Shown here one piece after another: positions 105-11,013 of a DNA stretch of 11,013 nt. The position numbers and the translations under genes are program-made. Where the stretch lies: NCBI GenBank assembly GCA_038153405.1, contig JAYOYH010000090.1, positions 1 through 11,013 of the forward strand, in the 5' to 3' direction. This DNA is from Gemmatimonadota bacterium (GTDB lineage: Bacteria > Latescibacterota > UBA2968 > UBA8231). Each line of letters starts with the position of its first letter. Positions within the stretch are counted from its first letter, which is position 1. The notes below the pieces were generated by a model. It saw nothing but the letters and a program-made list of their open reading frames with translations. It was not told the DNA's origin and ran no database searches.

Positions 105-935
105 ATGACCACTGCGACCCATCGCCATCTGACCGATGCAGAAGTCGAAGCGTTTTGGGAAGATGGCTTTATCGTCGTCAAAAACGTGCTCGACGAACGG
201 ACCATTGAAACGGCCAAGCGAGCCATTCTCGATATGGTGCCGAAAGATCTGGTCTTTCCCGATCATTTTGCCTCGCACAGCGGTCGCCTCAAGCCGCATC
301 AGCCCGACGGCGATCAGAGCTTTTATACTCCGGAACTGCTGCCCCTCATGTATAACGAGAAGCTCTACGGCGTAATGACGGACCTATTTGAGACAGAATA
401 TCTGCAGGTGCGCGATGGTTCTGTTGGCATCACTATTAAGGACGCTGGTCCGGCTGGACTGACGCAGAAGCTGCACTTAGATATGCGACGTCCAGCGCGC
501 GAGCAGCTAACGCGCGAATTGATTCGCTTTGACGTGGGTATGGGCGGCTGCTACTACTTGTCCGACGTCGAGGAAAACGGCGCCGGTATCCACGTGATCA
601 AGGGCGGCCACAAGATGGCGGAAGAGATCTTCTTCAACGAAGAGGACGGCCTGGAACGCTTTGAAAACTGGCGCAATATCAACGATCTGGCACCGTCGAT
701 GGAAGTAACGGCGCAGGCCGGCGATTTTGTATTGATGCACCACATGATGCCGCACGGGGCGAGCCGCAACAAAAACGCCGTGCCGCGCGTGGCGCAGTTT
801 ACGCGCTTTTATCGCTTGAGTGAAGAGCAGGCGCGGCAGGCTCCTGGACCAGATAAGCCTATGAGCGCCGATGCGGAGAATGCGCTTAACGAGCTAGGTC
901 GCAAGCTGTTTCGCTTGGATCCGTGGATTGCTTAG
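105..935 (+). CDS. phytanoyl-CoA dioxygenase (PhyH)-family Fe(II)/2-oxoglutarate dioxygenase
   Basis: 276 aa; RBS AGGAG at 93-97. N-terminal 'LTDAEVEAFWEDGFIVVKNVL' is typical of PhyH. Metal triad H-x-D (KLHLD) plus distal His (HHMMPHGASRN); 'GAGIHVIKGGH' and 'AGDFVLMH' strands; downstream Arg (PRVAQF). Confidence 0.9.
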   Translation: MTTATHRHLTDAEVEAFWEDGFIVVKNVLDERTIETAKRAILDMVPKDLVFPDHFASHSGRLKPHQPDGDQSFYTPELLPLMYNEKLYGVMTDLFETEYLQVRDGSVGITIKDAGPAGLTQKLHLDMRRPAREQLTRELIRFDVGMGGCYYLSDVEENGAGIHVIKGGHKMAEEIFFNEEDGLERFENWRNINDLAPSMEVTAQAGDFVLMHHMMPHGASRNKNAVPRVAQFTRFYRLSEEQARQAPGPDKPMSADAENALNELGRKLFRLDPWIA

Positions 936-937
936 AT

Positions 938-1798
938 ATGACAGATTGGCAACCTACAGCGCAGCAGCAGCGCGATTGGGATGAGAAGGGATATTTTATC
1001 GCGCGCAACCTGGTATCCGTCGAGGCGGCCGCGGAAATGCGCGGGGTAATAAAGAATGTCTTGCTCTCACCCGAGCCCGATGCGCGAACGGATGCCGATC
1101 CGATGGATCCCATGGGCGATACGCCGGAAGCGCGCGCTGCGCGCTTCCGCAAGCTCAACGGCTTTTGTCACACCTCGCCGCTACTTTGGCAATCGGCCTA
1201 CATTGGCGCGATGGCGCCGCTGGCCCGCCATTCCCAGGGGCCCGACGTGCTGCTGAAGTTTAGCAGCGTTTTTATCAAACCGGCGCGCACGGGTGCGGCC
1301 ACGCCCTGGCATCAGGACAACGGGCTGTGGCGCGACGGGGAGACCGAACCGTTCAGCCTGTGGATGGCGCTCGACCCCGCTACGCGTGAAAACGGCTGTC
1401 TGCAGTTTATTCCCGGTTCGCACAGGACGGAAATCGTGCCGCACGTGCTCTACGAAGACAGCATTCACGGCGAGCTGCCGCGTGCGCGCGTGCGCGAGAT
1501 GATAGATCGACACGGAATCGAGCACATTGAACTACAGCCCGGCGATGCCGTGTGCTGGCACGCTTCGCTGTGGCACTACAGTCCAATCAATCCGAGTCCC
1601 TGCGGTCGCATCGGCATAGCGGGGGTCTTCACTACACCCCAACGCGCGACGCGTTCCAAGCGCAGTTGGGGCAGTCTGCCGTGGGTGGTGCGCGACGGAC
1701 GGGTGTGTGCTGCGTTTCCGGTAGAAGAATTCGAAGTTCCGGAAGAGGGTAGAGAACCGGCACCGCCCTTCATGCGGGCCGATAGCGTCGGGGCGTAG
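938..1798 (+). CDS. PhyH-family Fe(II)/2-oxoglutarate dioxygenase
   Basis: ATG 938 lies 2 nt after the upstream TAG and is preferred over the GTG at 923. Motifs: 'WDEKGYFIARNL', 'FIKPARTGAATPWHQD' (H-x-D), 'WMALDPATRENGCLQFIPGSH', 'PGDAVCWHASLWHYSPIN' (distal His), 'GRIGI'. Confidence 0.93.
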   Translation: MTDWQPTAQQQRDWDEKGYFIARNLVSVEAAAEMRGVIKNVLLSPEPDARTDADPMDPMGDTPEARAARFRKLNGFCHTSPLLWQSAYIGAMAPLARHSQGPDVLLKFSSVFIKPARTGAATPWHQDNGLWRDGETEPFSLWMALDPATRENGCLQFIPGSHRTEIVPHVLYEDSIHGELPRARVREMIDRHGIEHIELQPGDAVCWHASLWHYSPINPSPCGRIGIAGVFTTPQRATRSKRSWGSLPWVVRDGRVCAAFPVEEFEVPEEGREPAPPFMRADSVGA

Positions 1799-1855
1799 AT
1801 GCGTGAAGGCCGTTGGAGAATGGGTTCGACGGGTGAGTGTGCGAGCCTGCGCGAC

Positions 1856-3340
1856 TTATCCGGCCGCGACGCGTTCCAACGTTTCGATTAGTAACTTTGG
1901 GTCAATTGGTTTGGATACATAATCGTCCATGCCGACGCTGAGACACGCGTCTCTGTCGCCCGTCATGGCGTGCGCGGTCATGGCGATGATGGGAATGCGA
2001 TGTGAGCCATTTTCGGATTGGCGAATGCGTCGCGTCGCTTCCATGCCATCCATCGTTGGCATCTGCACGTCCATCAGCACGATGTCGTAGCGGTTTTGAG
2101 CCACCATCTCTAGCGCGACGGCACCGTCTCCCGCGACGTCTACGCTGTGCCCTCTGCGTTCAAGCACTGTTCTGGCAACCAGTTGGTTGACGATGTTGTC
2201 TTCTACAAGGAGGACGTGAAGATTGTTCTCTGGTACGGCGTCTGCTTCGGTGGGCTCAGTCGAAGCACCGGCGCGTTCGTGCGGTAGGGGCTTTGCATTG
2301 TCGCCGGTATGCATGGCCTTTTTCATAGGTAGGACAAACCAAAACGTGCTGCCGTGACCTTCGCTGCTTTCAAAGCCGATTTCGCCGTCCATGCGCTCGA
2401 CCAGCAGATAACAGATTGCCAGGCCCAGCCCAGTCCCTTCGAACGTGCGCGTATACGACGAGTCGACCTGAGAAAAGTTTTGGAATATCAGGTGGTGCTT
2501 TTCTTCGGGAATACCAACGCCCGTATCGCGTACGCTGAAGCGAGTGAGGCGAGAGCCATTTTCATCAGTGCCCCCATCCTCTATAGAGAGCGATACAGAG
2601 CCCGATAAGGTGAACTTAATGCCGTTGCCAACGAGGTTAATCAGAATCTGGCGAATGCGTCCGGAGTCGCCATAAAAATAGTCATCAAGTTCGGTGTCTA
2701 TGGCTAAGTTTAGCTCTATGCCCCTGGTAATGGCGCGCGTCTCAAGCAGGTCTAACACGCCCTGCGCCAACTTGCGCAGGTTAAAGTCACTCGGGTAAAT
2801 ATCGAGCTTGCCCGCCTCGAGCTTTGAATAGTCGAGCACGTCGTTGATTATGGTCAACAGCGCTTCGGAGGAGTCCTGTATTGTCTCGGCAAAGTGCCGC
2901 TGCTCATCGTTTAACTGCGTATCCAATAGCACACTGACCATGCCGAGAACGCCGTTCATGGGCGTGCGTATTTCGTGGCTCATATTGGCTAGAAAAGCAG
3001 ACTTCGTCTTGCTAGCCGCTTCTGCGCGCTCCAGTGCGTCGCGCAGCTCGACTGTGCGCTCTTCGACGAGTTTTTCCAGGTTAGTGAGGGTTTCCTGCAG
3101 CTGCTGGTTGGCGTCGAAAAGCGCACGCGACCGCTCTTCTACGATCGATTCGAGTTCTTTGCGCGCAGCTCGCTCTCGCTCAAAGCGGCGCTTGTACGGG
3201 TTGTCTTCCAAAGCGGCCTGAAGTTGTTGGTTGGTCTCGAATAATTCGCGCGTGCGCGCTTCTACAACCGACTCGAACTCTTTGCGCGCCATTCGCTCTC
3301 GCTCAAAGCGGCGCATGTATGGATCGCGTTCTACCGGCAT
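1856..3340 (-). CDS. soluble hybrid sensor histidine kinase/response regulator (HisKA-HATPase-REC), H-NOX-associated (HnoK-like)
   Basis: 494 aa. H-box [11 protein letters not shown]-box [15 protein letters not shown]1 DTGVGIP, F-box [10 protein letters not shown]2 GTGLGL. REC has [20 protein letters not shown] and SKP. No TM helix; the N-terminus is coiled coil only. Starts 12 nt after the H-NOX stop. Confidence 0.96.
3077..3322 (-). repeat. in-frame tandem duplication, 2 x 123 bp (41 aa), at the kinase N-terminus
   Basis: [41 protein letters not shown] vs [41 protein letters not shown]: 27/41 identical by hand count. DNA anchor CGCTCAAAGCGGCGC occurs at 3177 and 3300 (period 123). Confidence 0.95.
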
Positions 3341-3352
3341 ATAAAAAATCGA

Positions 3353-3895
3353 CTAATTCTTGCGAATTTCAAATCGAACGTGCGCCTGATCATCGGTCGA
3401 ATTATCAGACACCTCGATCGTTGCGTCGCATTCGTAGTACGCTAACGCACCCTCGATGAGCCCTCGGGCTAACATGCCAAAGTGACGGTGAGAGCGGTAG
3501 TCGAGTACGAGGGTATTGTCGTCGACTTGGTTTGTGCTGATGCTGGGCAGTTGGGCGTTGGGATAGAGTTTCTGCACTTCTCGGTGAATGTGCTCATCGA
3601 CTGTGGCGAGAAACGAGAAGGCGTCGGAGTGGCCCGAGAAAAACTGCGGGTAGAGCGATGAAAAACGCGTCGCTAAATGCGTGCCAAAGAGGTGTACGAG
3701 CGTTTCGACAGGTACGTCGGCGCGCTTGCTGAGAGCGACGACCAAGTTGATGATCTCTTGGTGGTCGTAAGATCCCACCGCTGTATAGGCGCCGTCGTTT
3801 TCCACACCCGCGTCATCGAGGATGGCGTCTACGGTGTCAAGGTCAAACTTTTCTTCCACCAGTTCGAGAAACTCAGTGAACACGACTCCTAACAT
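3353..3895 (-). CDS. hnoX: H-NOX / heme NO-binding (HNOB) domain protein, stand-alone, proteobacterial-type
   Basis: 180 aa. 'MLGVVFTEFLELVEEKF' start, 'GAYTAVGSYDHQE', proximal His104 (HIHREVQKLYP), conserved Pro117, Y133-x-S135-x-R137 heme-binding motif, 'GLIEG'. RBS GGAG (plus-strand CTCC 3904-3907). Confidence 0.96.
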   Translation of the reverse strand: MLGVVFTEFLELVEEKFDLDTVDAILDDAGVENDGAYTAVGSYDHQEIINLVVALSKRADVPVETLVHLFGTHLATRFSSLYPQFFSGHSDAFSFLATVDEHIHREVQKLYPNAQLPSISTNQVDDNTLVLDYRSHRHFGMLARGLIEGALAYYECDATIEVSDNSTDDQAHVRFEIRKN

Positions 3896-3960
3896 GGTGC
3901 AGTCTCCGGCTTTGATCTACCGCTATGGCACGGCGGTAGCATCGGTTGTATTTAGCGTTG

Positions 3961-3989
3961 ACGTTAAGGAAAAAAATGGATAAAGACAA
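3961..3989 (-). promoter_or_regulatory. candidate sigma70-type promoter for the hnoX-kinase pair 1
   Basis: Minus strand TTGTCT (3989-3984)-N17-TAACGT (3966-3961), in an AT-rich tract ~65 nt upstream of the ATG. Confidence 0.4.
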
Positions 3990-4227
3990 GTAAATTACGA
4001 GGGCCGCGGCTCACAGCTTGAAAAGGGACAAATCGCGCAGAATAGGGACAATTTAAACGGCAAAAAATGTGGATGAGACGACCGATTGCAACACCCTGGC
4101 TCGGCGATACGCCTGTGGGGGCGGTTCTGCAAAATATGTGAAGAGTAAGCCCGCCAATGCAGGCAGCACGCGGCGGAGTCGCAGTTGGGTGCTGCGATCC
4201 GCCGCGCAGTTAAGGAGCCGCTGCTGG

Positions 4228-5445
4228 CTATTTGTCGCCGAACTTGCGCAGACCGACAAAGCCGCCGATGGCTAGCACGAGTAAGACGATGGACACAATG
4301 GGCCGTGCAAAAAACCAGGCAATGGCAATGGTCAGCAGTGCCAAGGGCAAGGCGATGAGAATGGCGATCAGCGTCGTGCCTACGCCTACGACCGTGCCAA
4401 TGTGAATGCCGACAAACGGAATGCGATCGATGACTGTTTCAAGGATTTTAAACAGCATCGTTAGCCCAATGGCCATCATGGCGATGCCAACGATGCGCAG
4501 CAGCCACGTTTCCATCGCCAGCTCTTCTTCGGCCGCATTAAACATCAGGTCTGCGCTGGCCAGACCGACTTGGAGCAGTTCTACCGTGCCTGTCTTGCTC
4601 AAATAGGGCTCAAGTCGACTGCCGTTCTGTCGCGATACGACGCTGACCTCTGTCTCCGTCGGGATGATTTCAAAGCGCACCTTTAGGTCGCCGATCTGCG
4701 GCGACGAGGGACTGTCGCCCACGTAGAGGCTGTTCCCCGTGCGGTGCACCGTGCGACCTCCTATCTGCTCAACTGCATTGGCGGGCAGGCGCATTTCTTC
4801 AAAGGCGTCGATTTTCTCTATCAGCGACGGCGACAGCTGAAAAGCGCCGACCACAATGCGGTCGGCCACGTACTCGTCGCTCTCGTAGGGAATCGCCGCC
4901 GGGTTTTCGTGTCCGGCACGCTTGCGAAACGATCCGGAGTCAATGTGGTTTTCCGACCACGTCTTGCGGTATTTGTAGCTGGTAACCGTTTTCTCTCCCC
5001 CGCCACTGGTCTTTTCTTTACGCTCTTCTTTTTCCTCGTCCCACTGGTACATTTCCGTCGTGCGCCGCAGCTTGAGCGCTCCCGTCTCTACACCGAAGTC
5101 CAAATCGGCCAGCTGCTCATCGGTCGTAGCTTCACCGCTGAAATGGATGAGCTGGCCGTTGTTGGAGGCATCTACGGCATCGGATGTTACCGGAATGACA
5201 GCCCCTTTGCCCTCTTCAAGTGCTTTGGCTACGTCGACGGCGCGTCCCTCATTCCAGAACAGCAGCGGAAAAGCGGCCAAGAACATCACAAATCCGATGA
5301 CGGATTTGGAGGCTTGCTCCTGCAGCCGCGATCCCCAGGATTGGTGCGTCACCTCGGTAAACGAATCGGAGGAATGGCCCTCTTCTTCGTACGACTCTCC
5401 TTCGTACGATTCTTCTTCGTACGACTCTTCTTCTTGGTCGGCCAT
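4228..5445 (-). CDS. TMEM43/LUMA-family (DUF1625) membrane protein
   Basis: 405 aa. 'FTEVTHQSWGSRL', TM1 ending in 'LLFWNEGRAV', 'NNGQLIHFSG', 'LRRTTEMYQWDE', 'YRKTWSENHIDSGSF...GHENP' and 'PQIGDLKVRF' match my recollection of the family. A large soluble domain is followed by three C-terminal hydrophobic helices. RBS GGAAAGGA (plus 5453-5460). Confidence 0.9.
   Translation of the reverse strand: MADQEEESYEEESYEGESYEEEGHSSDSFTEVTHQSWGSRLQEQASKSVIGFVMFLAAFPLLFWNEGRAVDVAKALEEGKGAVIPVTSDAVDASNNGQLIHFSGEATTDEQLADLDFGVETGALKLRRTTEMYQWDEEKEERKEKTSGGGEKTVTSYKYRKTWSENHIDSGSFRKRAGHENPAAIPYESDEYVADRIVVGAFQLSPSLIEKIDAFEEMRLPANAVEQIGGRTVHRTGNSLYVGDSPSSPQIGDLKVRFEIIPTETEVSVVSRQNGSRLEPYLSKTGTVELLQVGLASADLMFNAAEEELAMETWLLRIVGIAMMAIGLTMLFKILETVIDRIPFVGIHIGTVVGVGTTLIAILIALPLALLTIAIAWFFARPIVSIVLLVLAIGGFVGLRKFGDK
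5381..5433. repeat. 15-bp tandem repeat (~3.5 copies) encoding an acidic (EEESY)n N-terminal tail of the TMEM43 protein
   Basis: TCTTCTTCGTACGAC / TCTCCTTCGTACGAT / TCTTCTTCGTACGAC / TCTTCTTC, giving EEESYEEESYEGESYEEE. Confidence 0.92.
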
Positions 5446-5710
5446 GATTCGGTCCTTTCCCGTTAGGATGCGATGCTGAGCACACGGGCCCGTCCGCTAG
5501 GCGGGTGTTTGGTGCCACTCCTAGGCAACGGTACATGTTGCGGGTATCAATATAGTTCGACTCGGGCCGCTGACCAAATATAGCAAAGCCGGCTTTTTAG
5601 CTCGATTGTTTGGCATGGAAGAAGCGCAGTCGAACGTCCCGGTGTCCTCCATATGAAAGCGCGAAAAACTTATCCCTAAGCTAGTATTATTGCATAAAAG
5701 ATGGAAAATT

Positions 5711-5746
5711 GCGCGTTGAATCAATTTTTACTTGAATCCAACGCGC
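5711..5746. promoter_or_regulatory. imperfect inverted repeat overlapping the -35 element (candidate operator)
   Basis: GCGCGTTGAATCAA-TTTTTAC-TTGAATCCAACGCGC. The outer 8 bp are a perfect inverted repeat (GCGCGTTG/CAACGCGC); the inner part has one mismatch and one indel. Confidence 0.45.
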
Positions 5747-5761
5747 GTTCATTTTTATAAT
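5732..5761 (+). promoter_or_regulatory. sigma70-type promoter for the hnoX-kinase pair 2
   Basis: TTGAAT (5732-5737)-N18-TATAAT (5756-5761, perfect -10), followed by RBS AAGGAGG (5776-5782) and ATG 5791. Confidence 0.7.
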
Positions 5762-5790
5762 CGCATGTAACCTTTAAGGAGGGGCGCGCT

Positions 5791-6345
5791 ATGTACGGAC
5801 TAGTACACACGGCTATGAGGGATATGATCATCCGCGATTTTGGCGAGGATCGATGGGCAAATATTCTGCAGAAAGCCAACGTGGGAGAAGAAGCATTCAC
5901 TCCTATGGAGAGCTACGACGATGCGATTACTCTGCAACTAGTGGGGGCCGCCAGTGAGGAACTGAGTTTACCCGTGGCCGACTGTCTGCGCGCATTTGGC
6001 AAGTTCTGGGTGCTCGACACGGCTGCCAAGTATTACGGCGGTGCCATGCTGTCGGGTTACGGCGATACGGTCTGGGATCTACTGGAAAACCTCGACCACA
6101 TGCACGATCGCATGGCCAGCACGTTCCAAGGATATAACCCCCCCTCCTTCCAGCTGGAAAACACGGACGATGGCTCACACCTTCTGCACTATCGGAGCAG
6201 TCGCCAGGGCCTGGCGCCGCTAGTGGAGGGCTTGATCGATGGGTTGGCTGAGCGCTTCAACGCGGATATAAGCTATGAAATTGCTTCCAGCGAATTGGTC
6301 GATGGGGGAGACCATATCGTCTTCAACATGACAGAGGCCAAATAA
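5791..6345 (+). CDS. hnoX: H-NOX / heme NO-binding domain protein, sGC-beta1/cyanobacterial-like subtype
   Basis: 184 aa. 'MYGLVH' start, 'FGEDRWANI', 'SYDDAITLQLVGAASEEL', 'FGKFW', proximal His105 (NLDHMH), Pro118 (PPSF), Y134-x-S136-x-R138 (HYRSSRQGL), 'GLIDG'. Strong RBS. Confidence 0.97.
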   Translation: MYGLVHTAMRDMIIRDFGEDRWANILQKANVGEEAFTPMESYDDAITLQLVGAASEELSLPVADCLRAFGKFWVLDTAAKYYGGAMLSGYGDTVWDLLENLDHMHDRMASTFQGYNPPSFQLENTDDGSHLLHYRSSRQGLAPLVEGLIDGLAERFNADISYEIASSELVDGGDHIVFNMTEAK

Positions 6346-6356
6346 GCCATACGCCA

Positions 6357-7997
6357 TTGCCTGCTAATCCAAATACACTGACACCCGAACGATGCGAGCG
6401 GCTGTACCCTCTCGTGTTGGCCGTAGAGCGTAGCGGCGCGATATGTTATGTCAGCCAAAAGCTACAGGAGCGCGTGGGGAGCGAATGTTTAGGCGAGTCG
6501 TTTGATGCGTATTTTTCCATCAAAAGACCGCGCCTTGCCGCATCCATCGGGCAGGTCGATTTAGACAAACACATCAGAACACTCTTTCTTTTTACGGACC
6601 GACAGGAGCGCTTCGGCCTGCGTGGCCAGGTTGTCTCCGGCTTGTTTCAGCGCGCAGCCGATCACATTCCCGTACATATTTTCGTCGTCTCGCCGTGGCT
6701 GGCGTGGAACGAAGAAAACGTGCCAGACTACGCGGCCGACTTTACCGACTTCACCATTGCAGACCCGCAGATAGACCTGAGCCTGCAGCTAAAAGCTCAG
6801 GCCGTTTCGCTCGAGCAGCAGCGCAAACTAACCCAACAGCTGATCAAAGCGCGAGACGAAGCCCAAGAGGCAAACCACGCCAAATCGAAGTTTGTATCAC
6901 ACGTGACGCACGAGCTGCGGACACCGCTTAACGGTCTTATCGGTGCCCTTGATCTGCTGGGTGATCACCTAGATACGTCGGCCAGTCGAGAGCTGCACAA
7001 CGTGCTGCAGGACAGCGCAGACATACTGCTCAATACGGTCAACACCATCTTGGATTTCTCGCGCATCCAGAGCGGGGCGGCCACCTTGGAGCGGGCACCG
7101 TTCCGCATGAGAGAAGAGGTCCAAGGCGTCGTCCGCCTGCTGTCCGTGCAGGCCAGGGCCAAAGGCCTGAGCCTGCAGGTCGACATAGACGATCGGATCG
7201 ACGGCTTTTTTGAAGGCGATGTGGCTAAGATAAAGCAGTGTTTGATCAACCTGATTGGCAACGCAATAAAGTATTCCCAGCAGGGGAGGATTCGCGTCGG
7301 CCTGAGCGCAGAAGGCGTTGAGGAAAGCGAACAGAAGCTGCGCTTTTGCGTCGAGGACGAAGGGCCTGGAGTCTCCGAAGAAGATCGACCGTACCTGTTC
7401 GAAGAGTTCTGGGTTAAAAACCAGCAAGTCACTGGAGATGTGCGTTCTACCGGGCTGGGGCTCAGCATCACCAAGGGCATGGTCGAGCTCATGGATGGCC
7501 AAATAGGCATGCGCACGCCCGACTCGGGCGTGGGGTCGGAGTTTTGGTTCGAGTTAACCCTGCCGCGCGTCGCCGATGGCGAGGTGGAGGTGCGCGAGGA
7601 GAACGTGCCGCAAGACGCGCCGAGATTGCGATCTGCTAGGGTGCTGGTAGCGGACGACGTGCCGGTTAACCGCAAGATTGCGTCTATGATGCTGCACTCG
7701 TTCGGAATGAATGTAGACGAGGTCGATTCGGGTGAAGCGGCTCTGCGCGCCGTTGAATCGGAACAGTACGACCTCATCATAATTGACGTGCACATGCCCG
7801 GTATGGGCGGCCTTGCCGCGATTAAACACATGCACCAACAGCATAGTCATTGTCAGGGTCCCATTCTAGCCTGGTCGGCTAACGGCACCCCCGACGAGGT
7901 TAGAGAGTACCTGAACTGTGGCGCGCGCGATGCGCTGCAGAAACCGCTGCGTCGATCCCATCTAGTCGAAGTCGTTTCGCGTTACTTGTCCGCATAG
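6357..7997 (+). CDS. hybrid histidine kinase/response regulator with N-terminal H-NOBA (H-NOX-associated PAS) domain
   Basis: 546 aa; the TTG start is uncertain. The N-terminus follows the H-NOBA pattern: 'LYPLVLAV', 'FSIKRP', 'LRGQVV', 'IFVVSPWL', 'DFTIADPQIDL'. H-box THELRTPLNG, N-box NLIGNAIKYS, G1 DEGPGV, G2 STGLGL. REC has VADD, IIIDVHMPGMGG and QKP. Confidence 0.93.
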   Translation: MPANPNTLTPERCERLYPLVLAVERSGAICYVSQKLQERVGSECLGESFDAYFSIKRPRLAASIGQVDLDKHIRTLFLFTDRQERFGLRGQVVSGLFQRAADHIPVHIFVVSPWLAWNEENVPDYAADFTDFTIADPQIDLSLQLKAQAVSLEQQRKLTQQLIKARDEAQEANHAKSKFVSHVTHELRTPLNGLIGALDLLGDHLDTSASRELHNVLQDSADILLNTVNTILDFSRIQSGAATLERAPFRMREEVQGVVRLLSVQARAKGLSLQVDIDDRIDGFFEGDVAKIKQCLINLIGNAIKYSQQGRIRVGLSAEGVEESEQKLRFCVEDEGPGVSEEDRPYLFEEFWVKNQQVTGDVRSTGLGLSITKGMVELMDGQIGMRTPDSGVGSEFWFELTLPRVADGEVEVREENVPQDAPRLRSARVLVADDVPVNRKIASMMLHSFGMNVDEVDSGEAALRAVESEQYDLIIIDVHMPGMGGLAAIKHMHQQHSHCQGPILAWSANGTPDEVREYLNCGARDALQKPLRRSHLVEVVSRYLSA

Positions 7998-8102
7998 GCT
8001 ATCTTAGTACGCACAAAGCTATGATGCGTGCGTTGTCTACCGCCTGCACGGGCGTCTGGATTTGTACGTGCTTCACTGTGAACGAGCCGACCTACTCTAC
8101 TT

Positions 8103-9082
8103 ATGGGGTATTTTTCGCCTGTTGTTGCGTTGTTTATCGTTTTGTCATGCAGCGTTTCTGTGCGCGTTTCCTCTGCATCGCACGAAGACCAATCCCACGT
8201 ACGAGTTGAGGATCAAGCCGGTCTCGCACTGCAGGTTGGCGCGTTCGGTGAGACGTCTACAACGTGCGCACGGCTCAGAACCGCGTCGCCGGTCGCTACG
8301 AGGTCGGCCAGCTAGAACTAGGGCTTAGTGCCAGCGTAGACCCGCGCGTGGGCGTCGAAGCGGCTGTTGCGCGCGATGGAGATGCATTTGCTCTGGGTGT
8401 TTTTGCCGTCGACTTTCGCCTGATGAATGCGGAGGAATCCTTTTTTCAGGCGCCGCGTGCGATTGAATCGCTCGGCGTGATCGTCGGCCAATTTGACGTG
8501 CCCTTTGGCATCGACTGGCACGTATACCCATCGATTGATCGCCTGCTGGTTTCAGCGCCTCTGATCGTCGAGGAAACGCACGGTGGATGGAACGATTACG
8601 GCGTGCAGGGATACCTACAGGCGGGACGCCTAGATGCGGTGGCGTATTCGGTAAACGGAACGGCCGAATGGGCCGCGGGTGGTCGCGTTGGTCTGCGCGT
8701 TGGCGGAGGCGTTGAGGTGGGCCTTTCGCTGGCGGGTTTCTACGACAGTGAAGAGCAGCTCGACTCACAGCTGACGGGCGTGGATGCGCAATGGTCGCTA
8801 GGCTCTTTCGCAGCCAAGGGCGAGTACATACGCCACGTACCAGAAGAGACCAACGGCGCAGCGGACAACACGCGCGGTCTGTATGCACAGGGCACCTGGG
8901 ACGCCGGGCGCTATTTTGCGGTGGTGCGCTACGGAGATCTGCGGAGTGGCGCCGGCGATAGACAGCGCTTGAGCACGGGGTTGGGTTGGCGCCTGCTCGA
9001 AACCTGTCAGGTCCGTTTGGAATACCAGGCGGACACGGCGGCAGACGAAACGCTTATTTCGCAGCTAGTCGTTGAATTTTAG
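8103..9082 (+). pseudogene. frameshifted outer-membrane beta-barrel porin (OprO/P-like or related); split into ORFs 8103-8315 and 8252/8264-9082
   Basis: The upstream ORF carries a signal-peptide-like hydrophobic N-terminus. The downstream ORF lacks one but has amphipathic strands, 'VGQFDVPFG', 'WNDYGVQ' and the terminal-Phe signature 'QLVVEF'. Removing 2 nt at 8250-8251 joins them into a 325-aa protein. A sequencing or assembly error is possible. Confidence 0.75.
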
Positions 9083-9196: not shown

Positions 9197-10039
9197 ATGA
9201 ACGAGAACTGGCTTCAACACTGCGCGACCCAAGCCCAGCTAGACTTCTTTAACGAGCAGGGTTACTTGATCGTCGAAGAGGCCCTTTCGTCCGATCAGGT
9301 GCAAAGGATGACGGAGGCCATCGATCGCATCGACGCGGCCGAGCGCGCCGAGCGCGGCCTAGAGCCCCACCAGACGATGGCCAAATTCCGCACCATTGTA
9401 GAGGACGACCTCTTTTTGGATCTGCTCGACAACGAAAAAGTATTTCCGCTGGCGTGGGATATTCTCGGCTGGAACATACAGCACTACATTTCGCATCTGA
9501 TCGTCTATCCGCCGGAGCCAGAAGGAGCTGAGGTTAATCTGGGCGGTTGGCACCAGGACGGCGGCCGGCCGGTGCGCGAAATGGAGCGGCCGCATCCACG
9601 TCTGTCGTATAAAGTGAGCTATTGGTTCAGCGATACGCGCTCGCCCAACAGCGGAGCCATGCGCATTATTCCGGGTAGCCACCGCTTTGACGAGAAGCCT
9701 CCGCAAGAGGTGTTCGACCAGCCCCTGCACGTCGAAGTCGCCCCGGGCACCGCCGTGCTCTTTGACCGCCGCCTGTGGCACGCGCGCGGCTTGAACACGT
9801 CCGAGGCCACGCGCAAAGTGATTTTCATCGGCTACAGCTATCGCTGGCTGCGCGGATTGGACTACAACAATTTCCCCGAAGAGGTCTTGGCCAAGTGCGA
9901 CCCGATCCGTCGCCAGCTCATGGGCGACGGCGTCGACGTGAAGGGCTGGTGGCAGCCAACGGACGCCGACGTGCCGCTCAAGACGTGGATCGAGGCGCAT
10001 CGCGGCAAAGAACACCTGGTCGATATCTCGGGTCTATAA
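9197..10039 (+). CDS. PhyH-family Fe(II)/2-oxoglutarate dioxygenase
   Basis: ATG 9197 is preferred because the ORF-track start 9101 runs through the terminator. Motifs: 'QLDFFNEQGYLIVEEAL', 'GGWHQD' (H-x-D), 'SGAMRIIPGSH', 'PGTAVLFDRRLWHARGLN' (distal His), 'TRKVIFIGY'. Confidence 0.93.
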   Translation: MNENWLQHCATQAQLDFFNEQGYLIVEEALSSDQVQRMTEAIDRIDAAERAERGLEPHQTMAKFRTIVEDDLFLDLLDNEKVFPLAWDILGWNIQHYISHLIVYPPEPEGAEVNLGGWHQDGGRPVREMERPHPRLSYKVSYWFSDTRSPNSGAMRIIPGSHRFDEKPPQEVFDQPLHVEVAPGTAVLFDRRLWHARGLNTSEATRKVIFIGYSYRWLRGLDYNNFPEEVLAKCDPIRRQLMGDGVDVKGWWQPTDADVPLKTWIEAHRGKEHLVDISGL

Positions 10040-10069
10040 CCTCTTCTGTCTACGGACGAGAAAGCAAAT

Positions 10070-11013
10070 ATGAGCGAGCAAAAACTGAGAGTGGGCTTTT
10101 ACGGCTGCGGCCACTTTGCCCAGAGCACGCGTATCCCCAACGTGCTGGCGGCTGGGGGAGAGGTCGTTGCCCTGAGTGACGCCAGCGCCGAGGCCATGCA
10201 GGCCGCTGCCGCGCTGTGTCCCGGGGCGCGGTGCTACGCCGATGCGCACGACATGCTAGAGAGCGAGTCGCTCGATGCGCTCTACTCCATCGTGCCGGCC
10301 TTCGCGCGGACCGACGTCGAAATCATCGCCGCCGAGCGCGGCATACATCTCTTTAGCGAAAAGCCGCAGGTGCTCGACATGGCGCTGGGTTGGCGCATTG
10401 AAGGGGCCATTGCCAAAGCCGGCGTCGTATCGACGGTGGGCGTGCGCGAGCGCTACCGGCCGCTCTTTCAGGAGGCCAAAAAGTGGCTCGCGGACAAGCG
10501 CGTTGTGCACATGCGCTTTCAGAGTTTCGGCGGCCTACCGGGCAGCGCGCACGGCAGTTGGTGGGACGAGGTCGACAAGTCGGGGGGACGTGCGCTGGAC
10601 TGGGGCGTGCACGCGACGGACTACTTGCGCTTTATGACCGGTATGGAAGTGGTGCGGGCGCAGGCGTTTTATCACCAGCCCGAGCCCTATGTGCTGCCGC
10701 TGTCCTCGTCGCTGCACTACGCCTTTGACAGCGGTGCAACCGCTGTGCTGAGCTTTCTGTCATCGCGCGGAAAGACCGGGTCGCAGGGCATGCCAGGCGG
10801 CGAGCCGTGGTTTGTAATCTACTGCGAGGAGGGCATTCTCTCGCTGCACGGTTATGAGCGTATAGTCGCTGACGGCGAAGTCGTCTACGAGGCCGACGAT
10901 TACGATCCATGGCGCGAGCAAGATCGCACCTTTGTCGAAGCGGTGCGCGCAGGCGATGCTTCTCTTCTGATGAGCGACTATCGCGATGCGCTGTACTCGC
11001 TGGGGCCGGTGCT
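10070..11013 (+). CDS. Gfo/Idh/MocA-family NAD(P)-dependent oxidoreductase (3' partial)
   Basis: Manual translation: MSEQKLRVGFYGCGHFA (Rossmann GxGxxA), 'HLFSEKP' (EKP motif), 'SGGRALDWGVHATDYLRF' (D-xxx-H), 'QDRTFVEAVRAG'. The frame is open to the window end, which is why it is missing from the ORF track. Confidence 0.93.
   Translation, partial: MSEQKLRVGFYGCGHFAQSTRIPNVLAAGGEVVALSDASAEAMQAAAALCPGARCYADAHDMLESESLDALYSIVPAFARTDVEIIAAERGIHLFSEKPQVLDMALGWRIEGAIAKAGVVSTVGVRERYRPLFQEAKKWLADKRVVHMRFQSFGGLPGSAHGSWWDEVDKSGGRALDWGVHATDYLRFMTGMEVVRAQAFYHQPEPYVLPLSSSLHYAFDSGATAVLSFLSSRGKTGSQGMPGGEPWFVIYCEEGILSLHGYERIVADGEVVYEADDYDPWREQDRTFVEAVRAGDASLLMSDYRDALYSLGPV

Follow-up and report, generated by a model that had tools for sequence, protein, structure and literature searches.

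Two unrelated H-NOX/hybrid kinase pairs side by side in a variable island of a Latescibacterota genome

We describe a locus at which two H-NOX genes, each with its own histidine kinase gene, lie side by side in contig JAYOYH010000090.1 of a Latescibacterota genome (G000; 4.86 Mb, 93% complete). Proteins that share 90% clusters with the PhyH3 product of this contig and with relatives of HK1 carry the name Candidatus Latescibacterota. The contig was analysed as a whole, and its 11,013 bp are referred to below as the window. The open reading frames (ORFs) and their Pfam matches confirm the layout proposed in the initial annotation, HK1<-H-NOX1<-TMEM43 followed by H-NOX2->HK2, and the coordinates of all five ORFs stand. 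Each H-NOX gene is directly upstream of its own soluble hybrid kinase (gaps of 12 and 11 nt), and the two H-NOX/kinase pairs are 1.9 kb apart. H-NOX1 and H-NOX2 are the only two matches to Pfam HNOB in the genome. The features of the locus are as follows.

1856-3340, minus strand: HK1, soluble hybrid histidine kinase, 494 aa, HisKA-HATPase-receiver, with His122 and Asp424 (Pfam, motifs)
3094-3331, minus strand: N-terminal helix of HK1, present as two tandem 41-aa units, where H-NOX probably docks
3353-3895, minus strand: H-NOX1, 180 aa, in the clade of PDB 6ocv/6wqe (Pfam HNOB, 141.5 bits)
4228-5445, minus strand: TMEM43-family membrane protein, 405 aa (Pfam, E 1e-74)
5381-5433, no strand assigned: three 15-bp repeats coding for the acidic N-terminus of TMEM43; an assembly break point, at which the left-arm alleles merge
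5732-5761, plus strand: sigma-70-like site, assigned by consensus alone (10/12 matches), 30 nt upstream of H-NOX2
5791-6345, plus strand: H-NOX2, 184 aa, Nostoc/soluble guanylate cyclase (sGC)-like clade, sister to Mariniblastus proteins (Pfam HNOB, 161.1 bits)
6357-7997, plus strand: HK2, soluble hybrid histidine kinase, 546 aa, with a divergent N-terminal H-NOBA PAS domain by homology, His185 and Asp477

The two H-NOX proteins are only 27% identical (49/181), in agreement with their initial description as highly divergent subtypes. Both score far above the Pfam HNOB cut-off of 25.5 bits, and both retain the proximal histidine, the YxSxR motif, the conserved proline and the glycine hinges (His104, Tyr133-Ser135-Arg137, Pro117 and Gly71/Gly145 in H-NOX1; His105, Tyr134-Ser136-Arg138 and Pro118 in H-NOX2). 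The best solved relative of H-NOX1 is 6ocv/6wqe (E 1e-41), which aligns without gaps over 178 residues. The heme residues of this structure carry the numbering of Shewanella woodyi H-NOX (bioRxiv 10.1101/2020.08.21.262071), and His104, Tyr133, Ser135 and Arg137 of H-NOX1 have the same numbers. For H-NOX2 the best PDB match is Nostoc Alr2278 (E 5e-41), with which His105, Tyr134, Ser136 and Arg138 align. By homology, H-NOX1 is Shewanella woodyi-like and H-NOX2 is Nostoc/sGC-like. The distal pockets of the two proteins differ, with Trp73 invariant across the H-NOX2 alignment. No distal tyrosine was found in either at the position that we take to correspond to it, which is Leu142 in H-NOX1 and Leu144 in H-NOX2, nor does a tyrosine occur there in 35 and 39 aligned relatives, respectively. 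Both proteins are stand-alone, with no fusion to a chemotaxis domain, and do not fit the O2-binding class of anaerobes fused to methyl-accepting chemotaxis proteins. Each has one cysteine, which rules out the 3-Cys zinc motif that marks the Cys/zinc redox-sensing H-NOX groups (PMC8738867). Because neither H-NOX has a distal tyrosine or a multi-Cys site, selective sensing of nitric oxide (NO) is the behaviour expected of both, on the criteria given in that source.

In an unrooted tree of 87 rows the two proteins are placed in separate deep clades, that of H-NOX2 with a support of 99, and a constraint forcing both into a single clade was rejected by the approximately unbiased (AU) test (p-AU 7.4e-13, on 36 of the 87 rows). 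They are therefore not the result of a recent duplication, as had been proposed from the window alone, and the copies do not group as recent paralogues. H-NOX2 groups with one 76% relative, and Mariniblastus/planctomycete proteins form the sister group of the two (support 98).

HK1 and HK2 both match Pfam HisKA, HATPase_c and Response_reg; their H, N, G1 and G2 boxes and receiver Asp/Lys residues are intact, and the absence of hydrophobic segments indicates that both are soluble. The identity between them (32% over 417 aa) is restricted to the C-terminal part. The initial annotation assigned them different input regions, a duplicated helix in HK1 and an H-NOBA PAS domain in HK2; the helix repeat is real, and the H-NOBA assignment holds by homology. 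The repeat in HK1 comprises two 41-aa units identical at 27/41 positions, encoded by a DNA repeat of 115 nt (77%, period 123). This charged N-terminal helix belongs to no significant Pfam family, but it is found in the product of the gene following 72/80 H-NOX1-type genes, whatever the output domain, and at 0/80 H-NOX2-type loci. At the 50 H-NOX1-type loci that were not used to build the helix profile it is present in 42. The 72 other partners each have one copy, and HK1 has two. A search of the phylum with a helix-plus-DHp profile returned mostly generic kinases; among the listed matches that cover the helix start outside G000 and G002, a second genome considered below, 5/6 adjoin an H-NOX gene. 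This co-occurrence suggests that the HK1 N-terminal helix is a likely H-NOX docking site. Complex prediction lends weak support: a 2:4 model of the HK1 helix region with H-NOX1 scored 0.34 against 0.00 for the best control, where that mark was reached by 116/157 solved and 2/215 mismatched pairs overall and, at scores of 0.60 or below, by only 18/157 solved pairs and both mismatches. The complex model for pair 1, with a run agreement of at least 94% of contacts and a partner pLDDT of at least 80, returned no interface. The helix marks H-NOX1-type partners over varied output types (loci L036-L115) and is definable as an H-NOX partner motif.

Representatives with a doubled helix fall in eight 90% clusters with 108 members in total. 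Among 77 proteins retrieved, 51 have two units, 16 have one and 10 have none by pattern. The 10 are fragments or distant, and 4/16 single-unit proteins look like late start calls; others seem to be truly single. One protein, P0326, has a single unit and is nevertheless 98% identical to a two-unit allele, and copy number alternates between one and two among close kinases (P0317-P0437).

The Pfam search recovered HNOB twice and TMEM43 once, as foreseen, but HNOBA was not matched by the HK2 protein itself at E 10 or 0.01. The only PDB matches to the HK2 N-terminus are the Nostoc H-NOXA domains 2p04 (E 1.8e-4) and 2p08 (E 1.2e-3). HNOBA is matched by 41/42 members of the HK2 family alignment, and the profile of this family matches 2p08/2p04 at E 4e-33 and also sGC beta1/alpha1. 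By these matches the HK2 N-terminus is a diverged H-NOBA PAS domain below the Pfam threshold. Over its length, HK2 shares 41-44% identity with kinases beside the H-NOXs of Mariniblastus-clade planctomycetes, and 28-33% with the others listed; pair 2 is, on sequence similarity, closest to that of marine Mariniblastus. A protein search with the HK2 N-terminus found only its own cluster (348 candidates), a sensitivity limit since relatives at 33-40% exist.

The two pairs are joined through TMEM43, whose three 15-bp repeats break other assemblies. No single listed piece covers the whole locus. The window contig is only 11 kb, and the contigs of genome G002 end exactly at the repeat, which speaks for an assembly chimera of two unlinked loci fused there. 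However, a contig from another study crosses the repeat (4672-5483) with 1 difference in 812, and the start of TMEM43 lies with H-NOX2 and HK2 on a G002 contig (C226); because of these two observations we regard the join as real and not a misassembly. Nor would a chimera be expected to keep the TMEM43 frame open over all 405 aa, as in its 76-78% relatives, or to place the proteins of both arms on contigs of matching size (83,314 and 9,971 bp). An assembly chimera is largely refuted and most improbable. In one further run (X17), with a depth of ~3x, positions 4785-6992 are uncovered, which proves nothing.

TMEM43 was also considered as a component of the system and rejected. It is absent from 160 other H-NOX loci, and it occurs without a nearby H-NOX in three relatives (G006, G012 and G020). 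The statement that the pairs are arranged around a TMEM43 gene is correct as geometry and does not extend to function; the gene is a bystander. The protein, a bacterial homologue of TMEM43/LUMA whose N-terminus is an acidic repeat, occurs in 4/41 relatives searched, where its neighbourhood changes.

The block that carries the pairs is bounded and varied by the following features.

105-935, plus strand: PhyH dioxygenase (PhyH1), left backbone gene, abutting PhyH3-GFO in congener G005 (Pfam)
1600-5380, no strand assigned: tract (PhyH2 end-HK1-H-NOX1-TMEM43) swapped for a diverged allele in other population members
8102-9082, plus strand: porin-like gene, frameshifted, part of the variable block (Pfam)
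9197-11013, plus strand: PhyH dioxygenase (PhyH3) and GFO oxidoreductase, right backbone genes, in the same order in congeners G005 and G006 (Pfam)

G002 at first sight provides a second species with twin H-NOX genes, but this candidate was rejected. Eight long G002 contigs sampled average 66-80% identity to G000, whereas the two H-NOX contigs are at 98-99% and an unrelated short contig at 97%, and the H-NOX contigs are probably mis-binned from the species of G000. A G002 contig, C213, carries PhyH2 end-HK1-H-NOX1-TMEM43 in the same order as the window, at 81/63/63/81% protein identity and 45-83% DNA identity (200-bp bins), converging at the TMEM43 start. Both TMEM43 versions are present in run X6, ending at the same base. 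Between the pair-1 alleles dS is ~2 (near saturation) and dN ~0.3 (0.19 in the doubled helix region), with dN/dS ~0.14-0.15. HK2, on the other hand, shows 0 non-synonymous and 3 synonymous changes against C226 and is 97.7-99.5% identical in four other population members checked. The contigs of matching size noted above carry the diverged-allele proteins as well as versions of H-NOX2, HK2 and the porin with 96-99.5% identity to those of the window, from which we infer that the diverged pair-1 allele is co-located with a constant pair 2. Judged by these substitution patterns, both pairs are intact and under purifying selection. Pair 1 appears to be old, maintained and exchanged by homologous replacement; pair 2 shows the uniformity that a recent arrival should have, which would make pair 1 the older resident.

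Related genomes indicate how the block was assembled. In congener G005, PhyH1 lies directly beside PhyH3-GFO (58-bp gap) and the whole 8-kb block is absent, while in congener G006 TMEM43 is joined to PhyH3-GFO. In a diverged contig from run X7, position 5295 in TMEM43 is followed by 8492 in the porin, and the 3,196 window bases that include pair 2 appear to be left out. Since PhyH3 adjoins PhyH1 in one relative and TMEM43 in another, and TMEM43 adjoins the porin in a third, the block is best read from these gene orders as a variable island that was built up step by step. It is flanked by three genes for PhyH-family dioxygenases (105-1798 and 9197-10039); PhyH2 belongs to the variable segment and is located elsewhere in G005. 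Compared with C226 and all four runs examined, the porin-like gene contains an insertion of two bases near 8250, which cuts off its N-terminus (272 aa here, 325 aa in relatives), through either a strain frameshift or an assembly error.

We assessed how often the arrangement occurs elsewhere. HNOB is matched in 14/168 genomes of the host phylum, with two genes on one contig in G000 only. Outside the phylum, 1,354 genomes of Planctomycetota, Pseudomonadota, Bacteroidota and Cyanobacteriota were scanned, of which 174 had a match. At least two separate H-NOX loci were present in 22/1,354 (Planctomycetota 7, Pseudomonadota 12, Bacteroidota 1, Cyanobacteriota 2), and none of the 22 has two loci within 10 kb. 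None of these 22 genomes links its copies; together with the missing or partial block in relatives, this is largely the outcome that the initial annotation had named as a sign of chance juxtaposition. A second H-NOX was likewise absent from 80 H-NOX1-type metagenome loci (26 of at least 10 kb) and 80 H-NOX2-type genome loci (72 of at least 10 kb), one of the latter (L116) being a short, near-identical copy of pair 2. With 95% upper bounds, the layout could occur in ~13% of multi-H-NOX genomes and in ~3% of long neighbourhoods. From a rough 2d/L calculation, chance would place two loci within 2 kb in ~3 of 199,900 genomes and within 10 kb in ~13, which is likely an overestimate. These counts show neither selection for the linkage nor its absence. 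The twin layout is rare and, as far as seen, confined to one species-level population. The runs with at least half of the locus words are estuary, marine, seawater and biofilm metagenomes (seven runs from four studies, two of them flagged as a possible source). Paired HNOB matches at one locus of G100 and in G018 and G1315 were left out of the twin count, each pair being one split gene; a frameshift or stop divides these genes into two frames (G018:C69:3134-3614, G1315:C44:224378-224853 and G100:C118:8197-8671), which suggests decay in some lineages. In Pseudomonadota, about half of the H-NOX matches lie in long frames (400-570 aa), where H-NOX is fused to another domain.

The explanation that we favour, and consider probable, is that each pair was added independently to the variable island, hence their spacing of 1.9 kb, and that each is predicted to be an ordinary NO sensor damping its own kinase. 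By analogy with HnoX/HnoK and HqsK, NO would bind the ferrous heme of each H-NOX, and the NO-bound form, as for HqsK, would inhibit autophosphorylation of the adjacent kinase and lower phosphate flow. Phosphate would pass from the kinase histidine to the internal receiver aspartate and on to a histidine phosphotransfer protein (Hpt) encoded elsewhere. H-NOX1 may dock on the HK1 N-terminal helix, here doubled, and H-NOX2 on a dimer of the HK2 H-NOBA PAS domain, as in the sGC-like architecture, with pair 2 the probable later arrival, shared with marine planctomycetes. Several observations weigh against this explanation. The unrooted tree does not fix the direction of transfer with Mariniblastus. 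Only 0.09 linked cases are expected by chance among the 22 multi-H-NOX genomes, many scanned genomes are fragmented, and zero counts cannot split chance from a rare design. No integrase, insertion sequence or target-site duplication marks pair 2 in the window, and the GC content is no more than slightly low (55% vs 59%, 6th percentile). Finally, the persistence of the twin with both pair-1 alleles, judged from contig sizes, fits selection as well as linkage. A search for viral carriage of H-NOX2 found none.

One or both pairs might instead report a cue other than NO, such as redox state, heme supply or CO, or pair 2 might be a recent, near-neutral passenger. Some H-NOX groups do respond to oxidation (PMC8738867, PMC12329717), the H-NOBA domain of HK2 has diverged too far for Pfam while nearly its whole family matches, and the next gene, the porin-like one, is frameshifted in this genome. 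Yet every heme-binding residue is present, the single cysteine of each H-NOX leaves no 3-Cys zinc site, and HK2 has no non-synonymous change against C226 and is conserved in the four other members checked; we consider this explanation improbable.

Independent addition with separate damping of each kinase also has to be set against a selected two-channel sensor, in which the pairs are kept because their affinity for NO or their kinetics differ, and both act through a single Hpt to give a two-threshold response. The window holds no regulator or local output gene, and neither kinase has an Hpt domain of its own. The genome has 6 Hpt matches, one of them a stand-alone 120-aa protein (G000:C30:3077-3439), together with 71 receiver matches, 3 GGDEF matches over the cut-off and 3 HD_5 matches, none of the GGDEF or HD_5 genes being at the locus. 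EAL had no match in this 93%-complete genome, which gives no support for an HnoB-type EAL output. Convergence of both pairs on the one stand-alone Hpt is possible and would not need adjacency. The two-channel sensor would account for the intactness and purifying selection of both pairs, the lack of an Hpt or output in either kinase, the difference in distal pockets, and the retention of the twin where a 63%-identical allele has taken the place of pair 1; different NO thresholds of the two pairs are plausible. Against it, no other species searched has the twin, relatives carry TMEM43 without pair 2, soluble proteins can share an Hpt without gene adjacency, and the dual systems described so far have unlinked genes (PMC8738867, Table 1). 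The upstream regions share no motif (p 0.65-0.94). We regard a selected two-channel sensor as unlikely, and the initial proposal that the sensors were brought together as a two-channel phosphorelay is not supported, the linkage being found in one population only, the block being missing or partial in relatives, and neither a shared upstream motif nor a local output gene having been found. A more specific version, a two-threshold sensor combining both H-NOX architectures, in which the doubled helix would let an HK1 dimer bind four H-NOX molecules and switch more steeply, both channels would feed the single Hpt, and channel 1 would be tuned by allele swap and helix copy number (one or two), is more doubtful again.

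Promoter and terminator scans were at chance level (2 vs 4.1 expected and 9 vs 6.7 expected), and small shares of the locus words in three RNA runs (0.16, 0.15 and 0.06) were not used as evidence. An 8-bp inverted repeat with a 21-bp spacer (5717-5753), seen by eye, overlaps the sigma-70-like site before H-NOX2. Elsewhere in the genome a FIST-domain (NosP-type) protein (G000:C26:51225-51806) is a possible third NO sensor.

Stand-alone H-NOX genes followed by soluble hybrid kinases are known from the H-NOX-HqsK-LuxU system of Vibrio harveyi and V. parahaemolyticus and from Caulobacter H-NOX-HnoK. In Vibrio, NO-bound H-NOX inhibits HqsK autophosphorylation, and phosphate passes along a His-Asp-Hpt (LuxU) route (PMC6759604). 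Those loci have one pair each, whereas here there are two, with a doubled helix in HK1 and no known Hpt target. The HnoX-HnoK systems of Shewanella oneidensis and V. cholerae similarly combine an H-NOX with an adjacent kinase that is inhibited in an NO-dependent manner (PMC8738867, PMC8846402), but their output is the phosphodiesterase HnoB, and G000 has no EAL match. H-NOX2 and the HK2 N-terminus resemble Nostoc Alr2278 with its H-NOXA/H-NOBA histidine kinase (2p04/2p08), and sGC beta1; here, however, the host is a Latescibacterota bacterium, the nearest relatives are from Mariniblastus, the H-NOBA domain is below the Pfam threshold, and a second, unrelated pair is adjacent. Two H-NOXs per cell have been listed for Legionella pneumophila (lpg1056, lpg2459) and Saccharophagus degradans (SDE_3804, SDE_3557) (PMC8738867), with locus tags that are far apart, unlike the neighbouring pairs described here. 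In Legionella one H-NOX is with a diguanylate cyclase/phosphodiesterase and one with a kinase, and in Saccharophagus both are listed against one kinase, whereas here each has its own. In the literature searched we found no linked twin layout, as the initial annotation supposed, and no H-NOX from Latescibacterota; the layout or the docking helix may nevertheless have been described earlier. In PMC5029188 the name HNOB denotes something else.

Every part of the locus is thus of a known type, and the layout is a rare, real and narrowly distributed arrangement which by itself changes little. The doubled partner helix of HK1 is its most testable new detail. According to a 2022 review, no high-resolution structure of an H-NOX with its partner exists (PMC8738867), and the natural one- and two-unit HK1 helices offer a direct route to the docking site and stoichiometry. 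One cell holds cognate and crossed pairs of both main H-NOX docking architectures, the N-terminal helix and the H-NOBA PAS domain, for a test of specificity and a comparison of NO responses between clades. The locus also extends H-NOX signalling, as predicted from its genes, to the Latescibacterota.

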